Shown here: piece after piece, positions 6,190 to 57,178 of the stretch | How positions within the stretch are numbered: the first letter of the stretch is position 1 | How the letters are laid out: each line of letters starts with the position of its first letter | Assembly (NCBI GenBank): GCA_034658935.1 | Contig: JAYEGE010000008.1 | Coordinates: forward strand, 3,400-67,399 | Reading direction: 5' to 3' | Source: Patescibacteria group bacterium | GTDB taxonomy: Bacteria > Patescibacteriota > Minisyncoccia > Phycocordibacterales > JACOZG01 | DNA length: 64,000 nt | Position numbers and translations under genes: made by a program | Notes under the pieces: generated by a model | What the model was told of the DNA's origin: nothing | Seen by the model: only the letters and a program-made list of their open reading frames with translations | Databases searched by the model: none

Positions 6190-7605
6190 ATGGAATACAA
6201 GCCAACGATTGGGCTAGAAATCCACGCAGAGCTGAAGACCCGGACCAAGATGTTCTGTGGTTGTAAGAATGACCCAAACGAGGAGCGGCCCAATACGAAT
6301 ATCTGTCCGGTCTGTATGGCTCACCCCGGTACCCTGCCGGTGATTAATAAGGAGGCAGTGCGGCAAGTCTTGCGAGTTGGTGTAGCCCTTGGGGGCGAGT
6401 TGGCATTAAAATTTTCGGAGTTTGATCGTAAGAATTACTTCTACCCCGACATCTCTAAGGGTTATCAGATTTCTCAATACAAATACCCGTTAGTCGCTGG
6501 TGGCGAATTAGCCGGAGTGGCTATTACTCGAGTGCATCTTGAAGAAGATACTGCTACTTCTAAACACAGGGGCGATCATTCCTTGGTTGATTTCAATCGA
6601 GCCGGGGTGCCATTGATGGAGCTGGTTACCGAGCCGGTGATTAATTTGGCCAAGCAGGCGGGGGATTTTGCTCGTGAACTCCAGCTTCTCTTACGCTATC
6701 TCAACGCTTCCGACGCCAATATGGAGAAAGGGGAGATGCGGGTGGAAGCGAATATCTCGGTAAGTAAAGACGACAAATTCGGGACGAAAGTCGAAGTAAA
6801 AAATCTTAACTCCTTCAAGATCGCGGAGAAGGCGATTGAATATGAAATCAAGCGTCAGCAGGAAGTCTTAGAAGCTGGCGAGGAAGTAGTCCAGGAGACG
6901 CGTGGTTGGGATGAGACCAAGGGAGCAACTTTCTCACAAAGGAAGAAGGAATCTTCTCATGATTATCGCTATTTCCCTGAGCCAGACTTACCAAAATTAA
7001 AATTGGGTGAGGTAGAAGAGTTTAAACCGGAGAGTCTACTTAAAACTCTGCCCGAGCTACCTTGGCAGAAGCGAGAACGCTACCGAAAAGATTACGGGAT
7101 TAAAGAGAGTGATATTGAGATTTTGGTGGCCGATCCAGTACTTGATGAATTTTTCGAAGCTGTAGTAGCCGATTTAGGGAGAGACAAGCAGATGGTTCAA
7201 CTGGCGGCTAATTACCTAATCTCCGATGTCTTAGGGAAGATGAAGGTTAAGGCCGATCTTGGATTACCGCCACATGCTGATTTTACTTCGCTCATTAAGC
7301 TAGTGGCCGAGAATGAAGTCTCTTCGCGTGGCGCGAAAGATATTTTAGAAATCATGCTGGTGAGCGGGGAAGCGACTGGCCCCAAAAAAATTGCTGAAGA
7401 AAAAGGACTCTTTCAACAGAGCGACACTGATGCCTTAGGAAAAATTATTGATCGGGTTATTGATGAAAACCAAAAGGCGGCTGATGAATACAGGGCTGGC
7501 AAAGAAACTGCTTTGCAGTTCCTGGTTGGCCAGGGAATGAGACTCTCTAAAGGTTCGGCTAATCCTGGAGTGTTGAAGGAGTTGTTGGTCGAGAAGCTGA
7601 CATAG
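6190..7605 (+). CDS. gatB: Asp-tRNA(Asn)/Glu-tRNA(Gln) amidotransferase subunit B
   Basis: MEYKPTIGLEIHAELKTRTKMFCGCKNDP...NTNICPVCMAHPGTLPV is the diagnostic GatB N-terminus. Length 471 aa. Confidence 0.9.
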   Translation: MEYKPTIGLEIHAELKTRTKMFCGCKNDPNEERPNTNICPVCMAHPGTLPVINKEAVRQVLRVGVALGGELALKFSEFDRKNYFYPDISKGYQISQYKYPLVAGGELAGVAITRVHLEEDTATSKHRGDHSLVDFNRAGVPLMELVTEPVINLAKQAGDFARELQLLLRYLNASDANMEKGEMRVEANISVSKDDKFGTKVEVKNLNSFKIAEKAIEYEIKRQQEVLEAGEEVVQETRGWDETKGATFSQRKKESSHDYRYFPEPDLPKLKLGEVEEFKPESLLKTLPELPWQKRERYRKDYGIKESDIEILVADPVLDEFFEAVVADLGRDKQMVQLAANYLISDVLGKMKVKADLGLPPHADFTSLIKLVAENEVSSRGAKDILEIMLVSGEATGPKKIAEEKGLFQQSDTDALGKIIDRVIDENQKAADEYRAGKETALQFLVGQGMRLSKGSANPGVLKELLVEKLT

Positions 7606-8001
7606 AGCTAAAAATAGAGCTAAAACGGGACGATCCTAAAACCCGCAAACTAATCAAGACCTCCGCAACACTTCCTGTGGAGTCTGGTAATTAATCCCCA
7701 TGTGCGTTCTCTTGTTATTGTGGTAATTCAAGTAGGTTGGCAGGGCTTTCTTGTTCGCACACTCCAACCTCGTCTTACTAACTCTACTGCCTGCCCCCTT
7801 ACCTTGGGGATGTTGGGATTTTTAGTATATGCCATATTGTGGCTTATTTTAGCCCCTTAAGTGGTCCCAAGGCAGTGAACCATTGCGGGGAGTTGACATT
7901 TATACCAACATGATGTAGTCTTTATGTAGATACATTGTCAGGCCTGAAAAGACAACCGAGGTGTTCTCGATTGTTCTGGATGGGCCAAAAAGGAAAGGGA
8001 G

Positions 8002-8742
8002 ATGATGACGATGAGTACATCGATCACATCGACTGAAGGTTCGGGGATCACGCGGGGACAGAGGGAGTCTTGTACAGAGTTGATCACTCATGCCGCCCGT
8101 AAAGCGGCGACAGCAGCGATCAACGACCTTGAGGCCAACGGCGTACTCGACAAGGAGAACATCGAACGGGTCAGAGCCCGAGGAAACGAGGTGGTTGCCG
8201 CGATCACTGCGACAGTTAAGGCGAAATTCGCTGAGATCGCCGACAACGTCGCCGGTTACCTCCGCCTTATCTCCGGGGCTGAGACTATCACCCTCGACCC
8301 AACCGACGGGCAGGCAACCATCGCCAGGGCGGAGAATGTCTTCACTGACCGGATTGGCGGTGATTTCCGGGACTACTACGGCATTGACGTGCCTGGTCAG
8401 CCTACTATGGAGACCAAGGTCCAGGTCCACGAGATGGTCAAGGATGGCAACTTCAGGAGGATCTTTGGCGGCCTGTCAGAGAAGCTCGATGCCTTGAAGT
8501 TCGAGCAGAACCAGATCATCCAGTTCTGTCAGAAACACCGCCGGTGGCTCCGCACCGGCGGCTACGCCACCTTCTTCCTTTTCAAGGTGAAGGGTGAGTT
8601 CTTCGTGGCGCACGTCCGCTACTACGCCGGTGGCTACCTCGGGGTTGACGGGGGCCGCTTCTCGTACGACTATGTCTGGGGTGCTGACCACCGGCATCGG
8701 GTGGTCGTTCCGCAACTGCCCCTTGGCCCCTCTGACTCCTGA
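8002..8742 (+). CDS. GC-rich orphan hypothetical protein; candidate DGR target (its C-terminal 117 bp is duplicated downstream)
   Basis: Good RBS (aaaggaaagggag). No recognisable domain. Visibly higher GC than the flanks. The 3' segment 8596-8712 is identical to 9047-9163. Confidence 0.5.
   Translation: MMTMSTSITSTEGSGITRGQRESCTELITHAARKAATAAINDLEANGVLDKENIERVRARGNEVVAAITATVKAKFAEIADNVAGYLRLISGAETITLDPTDGQATIARAENVFTDRIGGDFRDYYGIDVPGQPTMETKVQVHEMVKDGNFRRIFGGLSEKLDALKFEQNQIIQFCQKHRRWLRTGGYATFFLFKVKGEFFVAHVRYYAGGYLGVDGGRFSYDYVWGADHRHRVVVPQLPLGPSDS
8596..8712 (+). repeat. 117-bp direct repeat copy A (VR-like, inside the 3' end of the 8002..8742 ORF)
   Basis: Identical base-for-base to 9047-9163 by manual alignment. 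The repeat ends 30 bp before the ORF stop. Confidence 0.85.
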
Positions 8743-9046
8743 TCCCTTGATCCTTTGTTCGCCTCTGGCGGACTCGGTCCCTCTGATTGGCCAAATTGGC
8801 TAGTCGGGGGGATTTTTGTATATTGATGGATGCATTTATTCAAATATCGCGGCTATGGCTCCGGTACAATGAATGTGTAAGGATAGGTTTGAGAGTTCTG
8901 TCGTCTAATTGATTGCAGAAGAGTAGGTCTATTTTTGCTAAACAAAAAATAATCAGTTGGTGCGATGAATTGGCGGACTTCTAGGTCCCAGATAAGATTC
9001 AATCTGTCATGATTTGGCAGATGGTATTAAAGGTGATTTATCGGCC

Positions 9047-9163
9047 GAGTTCTTCGTGGCGCACGTCCGCTACTACGCCGGTGGCTACCTCGGGGTTGAC
9101 GGGGGCCGCTTCTCGTACGACTATGTCTGGGGTGCTGACCACCGGCATCGGGTGGTCGTTCCG
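9047..9163 (+). repeat. 117-bp direct repeat copy B (TR-like position, immediately 3' of the Avd-like gene on the opposite strand)
   Basis: Identical to 8596-8712. The ORF-track ORF 9014..9319 that spans it is probably spurious. Confidence 0.85.
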
Positions 9164-9170
9164 AAACTTG

Positions 9171-9514
9171 TTATTTCTCTCGCTGCTTGTTGGCGAGAGT
9201 TTTCTTTTGCAGACCCTTTTCCCAGCCGCCGAGTTGTCTGCCCACCTCTTCTAATTTGGTTATTAAGTCAGAGTATTTGCTCGTTGCTATTATCTTGCTT
9301 TCCCAGGCTAATTGAGTGAAAAATTTTAACGAGTCTAGTTTGGCGATTGCTCTGCTTAGCACTATGATTTTGGATTCTGGTGACAGATAAATTGAAGTAA
9401 AGACAAGGTCTAGAACATCAAGAAACATTTGTTCTATCTTTTGTCTCAAACCACCCTTTCCACTCTAGGGAGGTTGCGGTGAATTGGCAGCCAGAACTGA
9501 TAAGCTTCCTTCAT
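9171..9514 (-). pseudogene. Avd-like (DGR accessory variability determinant / four-helix-bundle) gene, frameshifted near its 5' end
   Basis: The 92-aa ORF 9171..9449 (TTG start) ends ...LEEVGRQLGGWEKGLQKK and contains MFLDVLDLVFTSIYLS, resembling the C-terminal helices of Avd/bAvd-family proteins. The missing N-terminal helix (MKEAYQFWLPIHRNLPRVERVV) is encoded in another frame at 9446..9514. Confidence 0.5.
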
Positions 9515-9517
9515 TTT

Positions 9518-9540
9518 GAGAAGCACTGCCGGTGCTTCTC
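9518..9540. other. perfect 9-bp-stem hairpin (gagaagcac-tgccg-gtgcttctc) between the divergent Avd-like and RT genes
   Basis: Seen directly in the sequence. Followed by a G8 homopolymer at 9544-9551. Confidence 0.6.
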
Positions 9541-9570
9541 AAAGGGGGGGGTATTGGTAGAATTATTAGT

Positions 9571-10421
9571 ATGTTTCATAATTATCACCATATCATATCA
9601 GTCGGAAATCTTTTCCTAGCTTGGAGAGAATTTGTTCGCGGTAAAAAGAAAAGAGATAATGTGACCAAGAGGCATTGGTGGCTGATCGCTTATTACACCA
9701 TGTCATTTACCGATCTTTGTATATCTTCTTTGAACGCAGGTTTATCTATGATTCTTATTCTTGTCGCAACGGCAAGGGGACTCACAAGGCCCTCAATCGT
9801 TTTAGGACTTTTACTAGAAGAGTTTCACAAAACAACAGTCGCACTTGCTGGGTTTTAAAATGCGACATTCGTAAGTTCTTTGCCTCAATTGATCATTAAA
9901 TTCTGGTTGCTATTTTAAAGAGACATTTAGCCGACTCGGACAATATTTGGCTGCTAGACAACATTATTGGCAGTTTTTCCAGTACGGCTCCCGGCAAAGG
10001 TTTGCCTTTAGGCAATCTCACTTCCCAGCTTTTGGTGAATATTTATATGAACGAGTTTGACCAATTTATTAAACACCAACTTAAACAGAAGTATTATATC
10101 CGCTACGCTGACGATTTTGTGTTTATGCACCAGGACCGACTTGCACTCCTTGAAATATTTTCTATAATCCAAAGGTTTTTAACGCAAGAACTTAAACTAT
10201 TACTTCACTCTGATAAAATATTTTTGCAACCTGTTTCGTCCGGGGTCGATTTTCTAGGCTGGGTTCATTTCCTAGATCATCGAGTTTTGAGGACCAGCAC
10301 CAAGAGGCGAATGTTTAGGAATTTACAATTAGCTAGAGATAATGAGGAAGTTTTACAGTCATATCTTGGTTTAGTTCGCAACTTGACATCTGGGGGCGAT
10401 AGGTATATAATGACCAGGTAA
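9571..10421 (+). pseudogene. DGR-type reverse transcriptase, disrupted
   Basis: NLFLAWREFVRGKKKRDNV (RT N-terminus), DRLLHHVIYRSLYIFFERRFIYDSYSCRNGKGTHKAL, VLKCDIRKFFASIDH, PLGNLTSQLLVNIY (the LGxxxSQ motif typical of DGR RTs) and YIRYADDFVF (YADD). A frame change falls between 9660 and 9690 with about 45 aa missing relative to canonical RTs. An in-frame TAA sits at 9897-9899. Confidence 0.6.
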
Positions 10422-10522
10422 GTGTTTTTCTCACGATGTATTCTCGAGCACTCACAAGGTGTAAGGAAGGACTAGGAGAAAATGGTCGCCTTACATTTTA
10501 GTGTTAACGAAGTATAGTTCCA

Positions 10523-10810
10523 ATGGCTAAGAGATTGTATGTCGGTGGTTTGCCCTACACTACTACCGAGGAAAGTCTCCGCACTGCTTTTGCTCAAGCT
10601 GGGACCGTGGAATCCGCCAATATCATTATGGACAGGATGACCGGTCGCTCTAAGGGCTTTGGTTTCGTGGAGATGGCCACCGATGAGGAGGCCGCTAAAG
10701 CAATTGAAACGTGGAATGGTCAGGACTTCGAAGGACGTCGTCTCACCGTAAATGAGGCCCGCCCACTCGAAGAGCGACCCCCACGCCGCAATGGCGATTA
10801 CCAGGCCTAA
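10523..10810 (+). CDS. RRM-domain RNA-binding protein
   Basis: LYVGGLPYTTTEESLRTAF (RNP-2) and KGFGFVEM (RNP-1). Length 95 aa. Confidence 0.8.
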   Translation: MAKRLYVGGLPYTTTEESLRTAFAQAGTVESANIIMDRMTGRSKGFGFVEMATDEEAAKAIETWNGQDFEGRRLTVNEARPLEERPPRRNGDYQA

Positions 10811-10821
10811 GGCCTAGTAAC

Positions 10822-10856
10822 AAAACTCCCCCGCCAGTCGGGGGAGTTTTGTTTTG
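10822..10856 (+). terminator. rho-independent terminator (aaaactcccccg / cgggggagtttt followed by a T-run)
   Basis: Perfect 12-bp hairpin followed by TTTTGTTTTG. Confidence 0.7.
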
Positions 10857-10878
10857 CCTGAGAATAACCAGGCGAGGC

Positions 10879-10906
10879 TTGACAAAATGATTTTATAGTA
10901 TATAAT
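10879..10906 (+). promoter_or_regulatory. sigma70-like promoter TTGACA-N16-TATAAT
   Basis: Consensus -35 at 10879-10884 and consensus -10 at 10901-10906, upstream of the SPFH gene. Confidence 0.45.
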
Positions 10907-54697: not shown

Positions 54698-57178
54698 ATG
54701 GCTGAAGAAGAAAAAAAAGGAAAAATCGTTCCGGTGGACATCTCTCAGGAGATGCAAGAGTCCTATATCGATTACGCCATGAGCGTGATTGTTGATCGAG
54801 CCTTGCCCGACGCTCGTGATGGCTTGAAGCCGGTTTTAAGGAGGATCCTCTTCTCGATGCATGAACTCGGTCTGACTTCTAGTGCTAAGTTTCGTAAATC
54901 AGCCTTGGTAGTTGGTGATGTGCTAGGTAAATACCATCCTCACGGTGACCCGGCCTGTTATGGCGCCCTGGTTCGTATGGCCCAGGACTTTAGCATGCTC
55001 CACCCACTCGTCACGGGTCAGGGTAATTTTGGTTCCATCGACGGGGATCCACCGGCGGCTATGCGTTATACCGAGGTTAAGATGGCGCCATTGGCCACTC
55101 AATTATTGCGCGACATTGAGAAGGACACGGTAGATTTTGTCCCCAATTATGATAATACTCGCAAGGAGCCATCTGTTCTGCCTTCAGCCGTCCCCAATCT
55201 TCTTCTAAATGGAACTCTCGGTATTGCCGTGGGTATGGCCACTAAAATCCCGCCACATAATTTGCGGGAGATGATGTCGGCCTTGATTCACCTGATCGAG
55301 CATCAAGATGCCACTACTGAGGACCTAATGAAGTTTGTTAAAGGGCCCGATTTCCCTACTGGCGGTCTAATTTTCGATGAACAAAGCATTGAGCAAGCTT
55401 CTGCTACTGGCCGCGGTGGGGTACTTACTCGAGGTGAGATGGAGATCATTGAGCCGAAGAGCGGCTTCTTCCAGATCGTAATTTCATCGATGCCCTACCA
55501 GGTCAATAAGGCCGCCTTGATTGTTAAGTTGGCCGACTTGGTGCGAGAGAAGAAGATAGAAGGGGTCAAAGATATCCGCGATGAATCTACTACTCTAGAC
55601 GATATTAGGATTGTTATTGAGTTAAAGAGCGGCGCTTTTCCACAAAAGATCGTTAACGCTATTTATAAGGCGACAGAGATGGAGTCGATGTTTCATTACA
55701 ATATGTTGGCTTTGGTGGACGGAGTCCCCAAATTGCTCTCACTCCATACCCTATTAGAGGAATTTCTAGGCCATCGGCGAGAGATTATTACTCGTCGGTC
55801 TAAGTTTGATCTCAGCAAAGCAGAGGAACGTGAGCATATTCTGCTCGGTCTCAAGAAGGCGATCGATATTATAGATAAGGTTATCGCAACAATCAAAAAA
55901 TCAGTTGATGCGCCAGAGGCTCATCGTAATTTGGTTAAGAAATTTAGTTTTTCTGAGAAGCAGGCCACCGCTATTCTTGAGATGCGACTGCAGAAATTAG
56001 CTGGTCTAGAAATCAAGAAGATTTTGGAAGAGCTGAAGGAAAAGCAGGCTCTGATCAAGTATTTGAAAGAGCTCTTGGCTAGCCCCAAGAAGCTGGATGA
56101 AGTAATCAAGACTGAATTTGAAGAGATCCGCGACAAGTATGGCATTGACCGCAAGACTAAAGTTATTAGCCAAGGAGTTAAAGAAATCAAAACCGAAGAC
56201 TTAGTGCCTGAGAAAGAGAATGTATTAGTGGTCACTGCTGGGGGCTATATTAAGCGGACTGACCCAAGTGAGTATCGAGCCCAGCGGCGCGGTGGTAAGG
56301 GGGTAATCGATTTAGACACCAAAGAAGAAGATTTTGTCTCCATTTTCCTGTCTGCCAATACCCATAGCGATCTGCTTTTCTTTACTGATCTGGGCAAGGC
56401 TTACCAAATCAAGATGTACAATATCCCAGAAGGTAAGCGAGCGACGCGCGGTAAGTCAATCATGAACTTCTTGCCGCTGTCAGATACTGAGAAGGTTACT
56501 TCAGTTCTGCCGGTGCCTAAAGGCACCGAACCTGCCCGCCATGCTTCGCTCGGCGATTCGGGCGGGGGCAAGCCAGCCGCACTAATGATGGTGACGACCA
56601 AGGGCCTGGCCAAGAAGGTGGCCATTAGGAGCTTCGCTGATGTCAGGCGGACGGGGATTATTGCCATCAGATTAGGTAGGGGCGATTCCTTATTATCTGC
56701 TCTCCTCATAGAGAAGGGCGATGAGGTGATTGTCGCTTCTCGTGAGGGCCAGGCGATCCGCTTTAAGGCTGGTGATGTTAGGGAGATGGGGCGGACAGCG
56801 GCTGGTGTACGGGCGGTCAAGCTTAAGGGCAATGATGTTATGGTTGGCGCCAGTGTTATTAAAATGGCCGACAAGGGGGGTTCTTTCTTGGTCCTCACTT
56901 CTACTGGTTATGGGAAGAAGTCTAAATTATCTGAATATAAGGTACAGAAGCGCGGTGGCTCGGGTATTAAAACAGCTAAGCTTACTACTAAGACAGGACA
57001 CTTAATAGACGGTAAGGTTATTTACGAGAATGAGGAAGAGTTGATTGCAATCACTAAGCAGGGGCAGATCATCCGGATTAAACTCGATGAGATCCCAATA
57101 CTCGGACGTCAAACTCAGGGCGTCCGCATCATGCGCCCCAAGAGTGGGGATAGTTTAGCTTCCCTCACCTTCCTCTAA
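54698..57178 (+). CDS. gyrA: DNA gyrase subunit A
   Basis: [26 protein letters not shown] and [11 protein letters not shown]. The C-terminal beta-pinwheel repeats are present. Length 826 aa. Confidence 0.9.

Follow-up and report, generated by a model that had tools for sequence, protein, structure and literature searches.

A decayed diversity-generating retroelement in Patescibacteria whose template repeat carries variable-region sequence

Within a 64-kb stretch of a Patescibacteria genome (the window, part of a 132.8-kb contig) lies a diversity-generating retroelement (DGR) cassette in which the template repeat (TR) slot carries variable-region (VR)-type sequence, and in which the reverse transcriptase (RT) and Avd genes both carry disabling lesions. 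Sequence comparison supports the identification of this cassette as a DGR orthologous to dozens of intact Patescibacteria DGRs. Our preferred reading, to which we assign a probability of roughly 0.6, is that it is a recently broken DGR whose VR sequence overwrote its TR, most likely by RT-independent gene conversion from VR to TR. The element is of a common kind, but we have not found its decay state described for natural genomes. An earlier note, made from the letters of the window, had proposed a decayed DGR because three hallmarks lie together; that proposal is supported here, as all three belong to one orthologous cassette. Its features are the following.

8002-8742, forward strand: DGR target gene, intact, 246 aa, with an N-terminal helical hairpin and, after it, an alpha/beta domain at the C terminus in which the VR lies.
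8596-8717, forward strand: VR, a direct repeat with 9047-9168, ending 25 nt 5′ of the target stop codon.
8776-8814, forward strand: 18-bp GC-rich stem-loop with a T-run, 34 nt past the target stop (-28.5 kcal/mol).
8796-8824, forward strand: promoter-like site (TTGGCT-17-TATATT; a consensus match only), which shortly precedes the TR-RNA leader.
8831-9046, forward strand: conserved, structured TR-RNA leader (RNAalifold, 34 loci).
9047-9168, forward strand: TR slot, now holding VR-type, adenine-depleted sequence; it lies between flanks homologous to those of the TR in intact relatives, and A9164 is its sole difference from the VR.
9171-9514, reverse strand: avd pseudogene, split into two frames by a 1-nt deletion at 9452/9453.
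9177-9199, forward strand: hairpin with a T-run, resembling a TR-RNA terminator, immediately 3′ of the TR; on the reverse strand it falls within the 3′ end of avd.
9571-10421, forward strand: DGR-type RT pseudogene (LGNLTSQ, YADD and orthology), with a deletion, a frameshift and a TAA.

The RT has the [LIV]GxxxSQ form of motif 4 (LGNLTSQ, 10008-10028) and the YxDD box (YADD, 10104-10115) of DGR-type RTs, which lack maturase and endonuclease domains; the earlier note had recognized both motifs. With the intact RTs of loci L001 and L002 it shares 60-62% identity; these two represent cassettes with bona fide A-mutated TR/VR pairs. NCBIfam holds no DGR-RT model, and the DGR-type call is based on motifs, orthology and a structure match: the solved structure that the intact orthologous RT matches best is 8ub7, a stand-alone RT of 328 aa (137 bits, with group II at 70 bits), probably the bRT of Bordetella phage BPP-1. 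Grouping with group II intron or retron RTs, named in the earlier note as a result that would speak against a DGR, is not what the profiles indicate. The NCBIfam group II intron model TIGR04416 scores 114.7 bits with the window RT and 153 bits with the intact L002 RT, far under its cut-off of 300, and retron_St85_RT reaches 62.8 bits against a cut-off of 235. An Rfam scan of 7600-10900 returned no match to group II intron or retron RNA families, leaving the cassette with neither the RT scores nor the RNA domains of either class.

The RT gene is nonetheless broken. Its N terminus, MFHNYHHIISVGNLFLAWREFVRGKKKRDNV, reads from the ATG at 9571 in a frame other than that of the remainder, and the frame change, previously noticed near 9660-9690, can be placed at about 9666-9669. 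Residues 38-76 of the intact orthologue are gone, and with them the PKPRSI finger motif; the loss of finger-domain sequence that had been put at about 45 aa is therefore real, but its size is about 39-41 aa (~117 nt). The in-frame TAA reported at 9897-9899 is present and occupies a codon that in relatives specifies Ser (TCA) or Ala (GCA).

The earlier note had also described a frameshifted Avd-like gene, and both parts of that description agree with our results. The N terminus of Avd, MKEAYQFWLPIHRNLPRVERV, reads from the ATG at 9514 in the other frame. DNA alignment to L001 and L002 makes the gap visible and tblastn finds two frames; together they identify a 1-nt deletion and rule out an in-frame TAG as the lesion. 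Homology to Avd appears clear from profile comparison, although the scores fall below curated cut-offs: the gene matches Pfam bAvd with E = 4e-9 (37.3 bits; cut-off 40), and the frameshift-repaired protein matches NCBIfam DivGenRetAVD with E = 1.8e-16 (60.4 bits; cut-off 80), a cut-off that the intact L002 Avd, at 65.4 bits, does not reach either. The suspicion that both accessory genes are damaged is thus confirmed: instead of the intact, expressible RT and accessory genes of a DGR, the window has an RT with a deletion, a frameshift and a TAA, and an avd with a deletion. The decay is recent, because the RT and Avd have accumulated few extra substitutions (near-invariant positions are altered at 5/99 and 4/30, respectively) and the target looks constrained (1/30).

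The 246-aa target ORF had been called a GC-rich orphan. It belongs instead to a family of at least 180 homologues (E ≤ 1e-3), the nearest of them 62% identical; all those with a source name come from Patescibacteria lineages, and GC-richness is a trait of the whole family. The family alignment reveals a typical DGR VR pattern at the C terminus, in which an invariant scaffold (FFVA.V...G.L.V...RFS..VW.A..R.RVVVPQL) is interspersed with hypervariable positions over the last ~45 aa. As in other DGRs, the coding target thus has its VR at the 3′ end, with variable codons set on a conserved scaffold. The AF2 model of the target has a pLDDT of 89.3; the target matches no solved fold, and no C-type lectin match was found. 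The gene is intact and appears constrained, and so is fixed as a single variant.

The arrangement of the cassette is that of its family. The divergent orientation of avd and RT had been thought unusual, but the order target(+)-TR(+)-avd(-)-RT(+) is the family norm, is found intact in about 25 loci besides L001 and L002, and is known from the literature as architecture B3. The window and intact relatives have conserved TR flanks, leader and hairpin in common, and the window repeats are 451 bp apart, the VR-to-TR spacing in relatives being 436-455 bp. The leader comprises the helices H1 (8831-8854/8857-8876), H2 (8884-8904/8912-8931) and H3 (8960-8971/9035-9046), the last of which encloses two hairpins. 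In the alignment, 93.9% of cells are paired, compared with 42-46% with slid partners; double changes are found in 45 of 56 pairs, and none of 500 shuffles attains the observed values. The window leader forms 88% of the consensus pairs, two broken H3 pairs lying directly 5′ of the repeat. The leader had no match in Rfam. The sole match of the 7600-10900 scan was a sub-threshold rimP-leader at 10793-10897.

Several shorter elements are conserved as well. The stem-loop at 8776-8814 probably serves both as target terminator and as the DGR hairpin downstream of the VR, judging from its position and from the motif GTCCCTYTGAC...GTCAGGGGGA, which is conserved there in the family alignment. This stem-loop and the fixed TR-A/VR-C difference that marks the 3′ boundary of the repeat are the candidate hairpin and IMH-type boundary of the cassette. 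The -10 region of the promoter-like site, TTTTTGTATAAT, is conserved in the family alignment, and so is the hairpin at 9177-9199, with compensatory changes in 4/5 pairs.

The VR and the TR slot are identical over 117 nt (8596-8712 and 9047-9163). This exact repeat, already reported in the earlier note, extends to a direct repeat of 122 nt with a single mismatch, C8713 versus A9164 (121/122, or 99.2% identity), and occurs in two copies only in the 64-kb window; shuffled sequence gave none. We obtained the same counts as before for its A-poor 117-nt core, which has 12 A and no AAC. The remark that the copies differ by no adenine-specific mismatch holds inside the core, but A9164/C8713 lies just beyond it; this is a boundary difference fixed throughout the family (34/34 informative pairs), not diversification. 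The identity tract starts at its 5′ end where VR/TR homology begins in relatives, and stops at its 3′ end at exactly the family-wide TR-A/VR-C boundary position. The two copies sit in different, family-conserved contexts and are therefore not an assembly duplication, a prospect that the earlier note had raised against its own proposal.

Comparison with relatives shows what the TR slot has lost. The TRs of about 45 related cassettes are AAC-rich, and each of them keeps 22-29 of ~30 consensus adenines, as against 12/30 in the window TR slot. The window VR keeps 11/30 of the family-consensus TR adenines, and the VRs of relatives 4-20/30. Relative to the family TR consensus, the window TR is changed at 15/27 conserved-A columns versus 5/62 non-A columns (Fisher p = 3e-6), and the TRs of relatives at 0-4/27 conserved-A columns. 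Ordinary mutation is ruled out as the source, because the loss is adenine-specific. In the VR/TR pairs of about 45 orthologous cassettes (77-92% identity), 9-26 mismatches fall at TR adenines and 0-3 elsewhere. This near confinement of TR/VR differences to TR adenines, expected of a DGR, is present in the orthologues and absent from the window pair, and the window cassette is therefore a DGR remnant, not a functional DGR. Within the window there is no second A-rich TR, RT or avd. The one hit obtained, at 55919-55952, is a 34-nt, 76%-identical chance match. Of the earlier suggestion that a VR copy had been duplicated, the VR-type character of the second copy stands; that copy replaced the TR in situ, within conserved flanks, and is not an extra insertion.

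How might this state have arisen? By analogy with studied DGRs such as that of the Bordetella phage, intact relatives would transcribe a structured RNA with an AAC-rich TR from its own promoter, RT-Avd would copy this RNA to cDNA with errors at adenines, and the 3′-terminal VR of the target gene would be replaced by this cDNA. In the window, the entire VR-homologous part of the TR (9047-9163) would have been replaced by diversified VR sequence, most likely through RT-independent gene conversion or homologous recombination from VR to TR between the direct repeats 451 bp apart. The overwriting, which may have taken place before or after RT and Avd were lost, would have cost the template about 15 of the adenines on which diversification depends. 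A precedent comes from the DGRec system in E. coli, in which RT-independent TR-VR recombination was observed (bioRxiv 10.1101/2025.03.24.644984). Gene conversion has its own difficulties: the VR and an ancestral A-rich TR would share perfect stretches of only ~12-18 nt at each end, which would hardly favour RecA-type conversion of the entire tract, and a weak excess of conserved-adenine changes, as expected from cDNA landing on the TR, is seen in the TR-only leader over the 85 nt that adjoin the repeat on its 5′ side.

Such landing of mutagenised cDNA is the main rival to gene conversion. Adenine-mutagenised cDNA would have integrated at the TR, either in place of the VR or in addition to it, and the VR would later have received the same sequence by another round of homing that by chance altered no adenine, or by recombination, a course that we consider unlikely but give real weight. 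In an engineered non-IMH DGR, self-overwriting of the dgrRNA locus is about as frequent as overwriting of the target (bioRxiv 10.1101/2025.03.24.644984). In the window, both broken H3 pairs lie directly 5′ of the repeat, and the adjoining 85-nt leader has changes at 3/10 conserved adenines versus 1/26 other positions (one-sided p = 0.057 with leave-one-out; 4/11 versus 1/26, p = 0.02, without it). A-to-N changes in the leader lie at 8991, 9033 and 9045. This bias is not distinctive, however, since under leave-one-out the window ranks 2/34 behind the intact L046 in a region chosen post hoc, and the far leader has no A-bias (1/17 versus 8/34). Two events would also be needed to make VR and TR equal, and a mutagenic second event would have had to spare all 10-12 tolerant adenines, for which we estimate a probability of ~8e-4 to 0.03. 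The lower figure comes from 10 of the adenines remaining in the window TR: at these sites the VRs of relatives depart from their TRs in 37-60%, yet the window VR matches all 10, with a chance of ~8e-4 given family per-site frequencies. At a rate of 30% per adenine per event, the chance that the tolerant adenines stay unchanged is 0.014-0.028.

The other explanations fare worse. The source is a metagenome-assembled genome and a 117-nt exact repeat is hard for assemblers, so assembly or polishing might have misplaced the VR in the slot of a truly A-rich TR, some RT and avd lesions perhaps being errors too. We hold this to be improbable: a typical A-rich TR departs from its VR every few bases and would share with it no k-mers of the usual lengths, which makes a chimeric assembly path implausible; moreover, the TR-slot copy retains TR-specific flanks and the TR-type A9164, the neighbouring genes are intact long ORFs, and the lesions include a deletion of ~117 nt and a substitution, not just a homopolymer indel. 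More improbable still is a VR segment copied next to avd, with the real TR lost or lying elsewhere. The copies are identical and the one in the TR slot reads in frame as a VR-like peptide, but identity is limited to the exact span that is homologous between VR and TR in relatives, the sequence to either side has its orthologues in the TR leader and the TR hairpin that intact cassettes carry, the spacing of 436-455 bp being the same, and no other TR occurs in the 64-kb window. Least likely of all is an element that is still active, either through recoding or frameshifting of RT and Avd or with another DGR in the genome acting in trans on its VR. Both the TR leader and the hairpin that follows the VR are largely intact, some relatives (L009, L029 and L058) have two VRs per TR, and the part of the contig outside the window, about half of it, could hold such a DGR. 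Against continued activity, the RT is without ~39 aa including PKPRSI, TAG, TGA and TAA all end neighbouring genes normally, and the equality of the VR with the local TR slot gives no sign of recent mutagenic homing.

With the CPR/Patescibacteria architecture B3, TR-(avd)-RT (Wu et al. 2018, PMC5758913), the cassette shares gene order and orientation, Avd, an LGxxxSQ RT, a target of unknown function whose 3′ end holds the VR, and host phylum; it differs in that its RT and avd are pseudogenes and its TR is stripped of adenines. From host range only, we infer that it belongs to DGR clade 2 (Roux et al. 2021, PMC8144416). The DGR of Bordetella phage BPP-1 (avd-TR-brt, target mtd) has the same component set of RT, Avd and, in intact relatives of the window, an A-specific TR/VR pair, and also a hairpin downstream of the VR. 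In the window, however, avd lies between TR and RT and runs the other way, and structured RNA lies 5′ of the TR with only a short hairpin 3′, whereas in BPP-1 the structured spacer is 3′ of the TR (PMC12875486). In further contrast to BPP-1, the window target has no C-type lectin match, and the element is chromosomal in a CPR genome instead of residing in a phage. Inactivated DGRs are known from surveys, Wu et al. having dropped more than half of their candidates for premature stops, truncations or poor TR-VR matches (PMC5758913), and the window cassette has the same kinds of lesion. The usual remnant retains an A-rich TR, as do L005, L059, L068 and L078 in this family, whereas the window TR itself carries VR sequence. 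In DGRec, mutagenised cDNA made from the TR can overwrite that same TR (bioRxiv 10.1101/2025.03.24.644984), but that system uses plasmids in E. coli and a recombineering protein and does not depend on an IMH; in the window, the outcome would have arisen naturally in a genome. We searched the literature for natural cases of VR-to-TR conversion or of TR self-mutagenesis and found the engineered DGRec case only.

DGRs are usually described as strictly one-way systems in which the TR stays unchanged. That the TR of a natural cassette holds a diversified product of its own indicates that this directionality can fail in genomes, and suggests one route by which DGRs die and their targets persist as ordinary genes. 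Because the VR equals the TR and the TR is A-poor, DGR-finding pipelines that require A-to-N mismatches would miss such remnants, and former DGR targets would be undercounted. Taken together, the intact relatives make up a well-populated CPR DGR family in which the TR is preceded by a strongly covarying RNA leader; this leader, together with a target without a solved-fold match, may interest specialists more than one dead copy. Whether the back-transfer of diversified sequence into the TR is a natural process in DGR evolution, with the window as its first genomic example, is a matter on which we are tentative, and we think it somewhat doubtful. If true, back-transfer could be a built-in failure mode, in which mutable adenines are erased, one variant is locked and RT and Avd become dispensable; this would account for the many eroded cassettes and orphan targets that the family also includes. 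More speculatively, it could update the template, so that later diversification would start out from a variant that had proved successful.

The cassette in the window is dead. It belongs to a known and well-populated family of diversity-generating retroelements (DGRs) in the CPR and has a single unusual feature: its template repeat (TR) now holds its own diversified product. Its parts are as follows.

8002-8742 (+), target gene
8596-8717, variable region (VR) in the 3′ end of the target gene
8831-9046, structured non-coding RNA leader of about 220 nt, 5′ of the TR, from covariation in family loci
9047-9168, TR slot
9171-9514 (−), avd (accessory variability determinant)
9177-9199, short hairpin and T-run after the TR
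9571-10421 (+), reverse transcriptase (RT) gene

For comparison we gathered 80 related loci: 2 from contigs encoding two homologues, 23 from species-representative genomes and 55 from JGI metagenomes. Family cassettes are as a rule arranged target (+), TR (+), avd (−), RT (+), matching what Wu et al. 2018 (PMC5758913) call architecture B3, ‘TR-(avd)-RT’, so the divergent avd that an earlier note had called unusual is not. Nor is the target the orphan ORF that the note took it for: a search with the 246-aa protein gave 180 homologues at E ≤ 1e-3, those with a named source all coming from Patescibacteria (CPR) lineages, and after an identical protein in an NCBI MAG (132,795-nt contig) the next best is only 62% identical. 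In alignments of 27 and 113 members, the last ~45 residues form an invariant scaffold (FFVA.V...G.L.V...RFS..VW.A..R.RVVVPQL) broken up by positions without a majority residue, the pattern by which a DGR variable region is recognised. GC content is 53–59% in the target versus 33–51% in its own RT and avd, and is also lower in the surrounding locus (window, L001-L004, L023 and L026); this contrast recurs in 6/6 relatives checked and is a family trait, no sign of foreign origin.

Where a pair could be detected (21 genome loci), VR and TR are 77–92% identical, with 9–26 mismatches at TR adenines and 0–3 elsewhere, and the TRs contain 27–37 A and 3–10 AAC. Across loci with at least two segments, TR-slot segments keep 22–29 of about 30 consensus adenines and VRs 4–20. 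In three relatives one TR is accompanied by two VR-type segments, suggesting that these cassettes have two targets:

L009, 4359-4487 and 7077-7202
L029, 2936-3063 and 3871-3996
L058, 3344-3459 and 4209-4321

The cassette in the window differs from its orthologues in that its repeat pair has no A-specific differences. Sequence identity confirmed the exact repeat described previously (8596-8712 and 9047-9163), which extends to 122 nt (8596-8717 and 9047-9168) with C8713 versus A9164 as the sole mismatch; no third copy was found within the 64-kb window, and shuffled sequence yields none. This position, column 114 of the TR consensus, is A in the TR (Lys AAA) and C in the VR (Gln CAA), and the VR is unlike its own TR at this 3′ boundary in 34/34 informative family pairs. 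The difference is not diversification; it is fixed and probably marks the start of information transfer, an IMH/IMH*-type boundary.

The second copy occupies the orthologous TR slot: the ~300 nt from the target stop to the repeat, and the hairpin past it, can be aligned to intact relatives, and the TR-type A is retained at the 3′ boundary. The slot keeps 12 of 30 consensus adenines, however, and its changes against the family TR consensus affect 15 of 27 columns with a conserved A but only 5 of 62 with another conserved base (Fisher p = 3e-6); in relatives’ TRs 0–4 of the 27 are changed. CAC, CGC, TAC, GAC and GGC stand where AAC codons once stood, which fits adenine mutagenesis. An orthologous slot and flanks with adenine-depleted, VR-type content indicate that the TR was overwritten in situ by diversified sequence. 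The earlier suggestion of a duplicated VR was thus close, but an inserted duplicate fits poorly with the alignable flanks; ordinary point mutation fits poorly with the skew towards adenines. No other case of VR-type sequence in the TR slot occurs among ~47 loci with such a slot, and TRs are still A-rich in four other eroded cassettes (L005, L059, L068 and L078).

Ten of the remaining TR adenines lie at sites where relatives’ VRs are unlike their own TR in 37–60% of cases, and the window VR equals the TR at all of them. Had mutagenic homing started from a TR that was already overwritten, the chance of such a match would be ~8e-4 under family per-site frequencies, and 0.014–0.028 at the 30% per adenine that a single event showed in E. 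coli (bioRxiv 10.1101/2025.03.24.644984). Given these low chances, the simplest explanation for the identity of VR and TR is non-mutagenic copying at the DNA level, in which VR-to-TR gene conversion would act on direct repeats 451 bp apart; RT-independent TR–VR recombination has been seen experimentally (bioRxiv 10.1101/2025.03.24.644984). The main rival is integration of mutagenised cDNA at the TR locus itself, which occurs in an engineered system whose integration needs no IMH (bioRxiv 10.1101/2025.03.24.644984) and predicts A-specific loss reaching into the TR-only leader. In the 85 nt of leader adjoining the repeat, 3 of 10 conserved A are changed versus 1 of 26 non-A (p = 0.057), the window ranking second of 34 (leave-one-out) behind an intact cassette; A-bias is absent from the far leader. 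That assembly put VR sequence in the TR slot is unlikely, because the copy retains TR-specific flanks and an A-rich TR of the usual kind, differing from its VR every few bases, should have no assembly-length k-mers in common with it.

Profile searches bore out the proposed identities of avd and RT. The 92-aa minus-strand ORF matches Pfam bAvd (profile positions 30-106, E = 4e-9), and the frame-repaired Avd matches NCBIfam DivGenRetAVD (E = 1.8e-16), although its score, like that of the intact Avd of cassette L002, is under the curated cut-off. ORF fragments 9675-9899 and 9900-10421 match RVT_1, and the translation has both LGNLTSQ and YADD. The RT is neither of the group II intron type nor of the retron type: NCBIfam scores are 114.7 (cut-off 300) and 62.8 (cut-off 235), respectively, no intron or retron RNA was found in 7600-10900, and among solved structures an intact orthologous RT is best matched by a 328-aa stand-alone RT, which scores twice as high as group II.

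The damage reported for both genes was also confirmed. The RT N terminus (MFHNYHHIISVGNLFLAWREFVRGKKKRDNV, from ATG 9571) does not share its frame with the remainder, and tblastn places residues 9-37 of an intact orthologue at 9583-9669 and residues 77-312 at 9666-10376, so ~39 codons are missing, with a frame change at the junction; the PKPRSI motif falls within the lost stretch. TAA at 9897-9899 stands where relatives have Ser (TCA) or Ala (GCA). DNA alignment with relatives locates a 1-nt deletion in avd at 9452/9453, and the Avd N terminus (MKEAYQFWLPIHRNLPRVERV, from ATG 9514), in the other frame, agrees with relatives. With RT and avd broken and A-specific TR/VR differences absent, the element is a DGR remnant and not a working DGR, and the note’s main reading, a decayed DGR, holds. 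A perfect sigma-70 consensus (TTGACA-17-TATAAT) lies at 10383-10411, within the 3′-terminal part of the RT pseudogene and ~110 nt upstream of a gene for an RRM-domain RNA-binding protein (10523-10810).

At positions ≥90% conserved among relatives, the window has changed 5/99 in RT (rank 7 of 26), 4/30 in Avd (rank 4 of 39) and 1/30 in the target (rank 34 of 55). Judged by this conservation, breakage of the cassette is recent and its target appears to be maintained. Taken as a whole, the family forms a decay series from intact through partly eroded cassettes to orphan targets, in agreement with Wu et al., who set aside more than half of their DGR candidates as inactivated (PMC5758913). At least 14 targets have ≥2 kb of downstream sequence yet no TR, avd or RT, although some orphans may instead be serviced in trans.

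Partly eroded cassettes: L005, L007, L055, L059, L068, L077, L078
Orphan targets: L006, L017, L021, L024, L033, L039, L040, L044, L052, L054, L057, L060, L065, L073

L068 has an extra avd-like copy (1421-1723, −) ~2.2 kb upstream of its cassette’s own avd; no RT was found within 2.4 kb downstream.

The leader comprises three main helices, the third of them enclosing two hairpins, and is conserved and strongly covarying (93.9% of cells paired versus 42–46% with partners slid; double changes in 45/56 pairs), and has no Rfam match. The window leader can still form 88% of the conserved base pairs. Whereas the Bordetella phage DGR has a structured priming element 3′ of the TR (PMC12875486), the structured RNA here lies 5′, so the layout of the DGR RNA may be different in this CPR family. 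Our literature search found no description in natural genomes of a TR carrying its own diversified product; the overwritten TR in the window is consistent with recent results from engineered systems.
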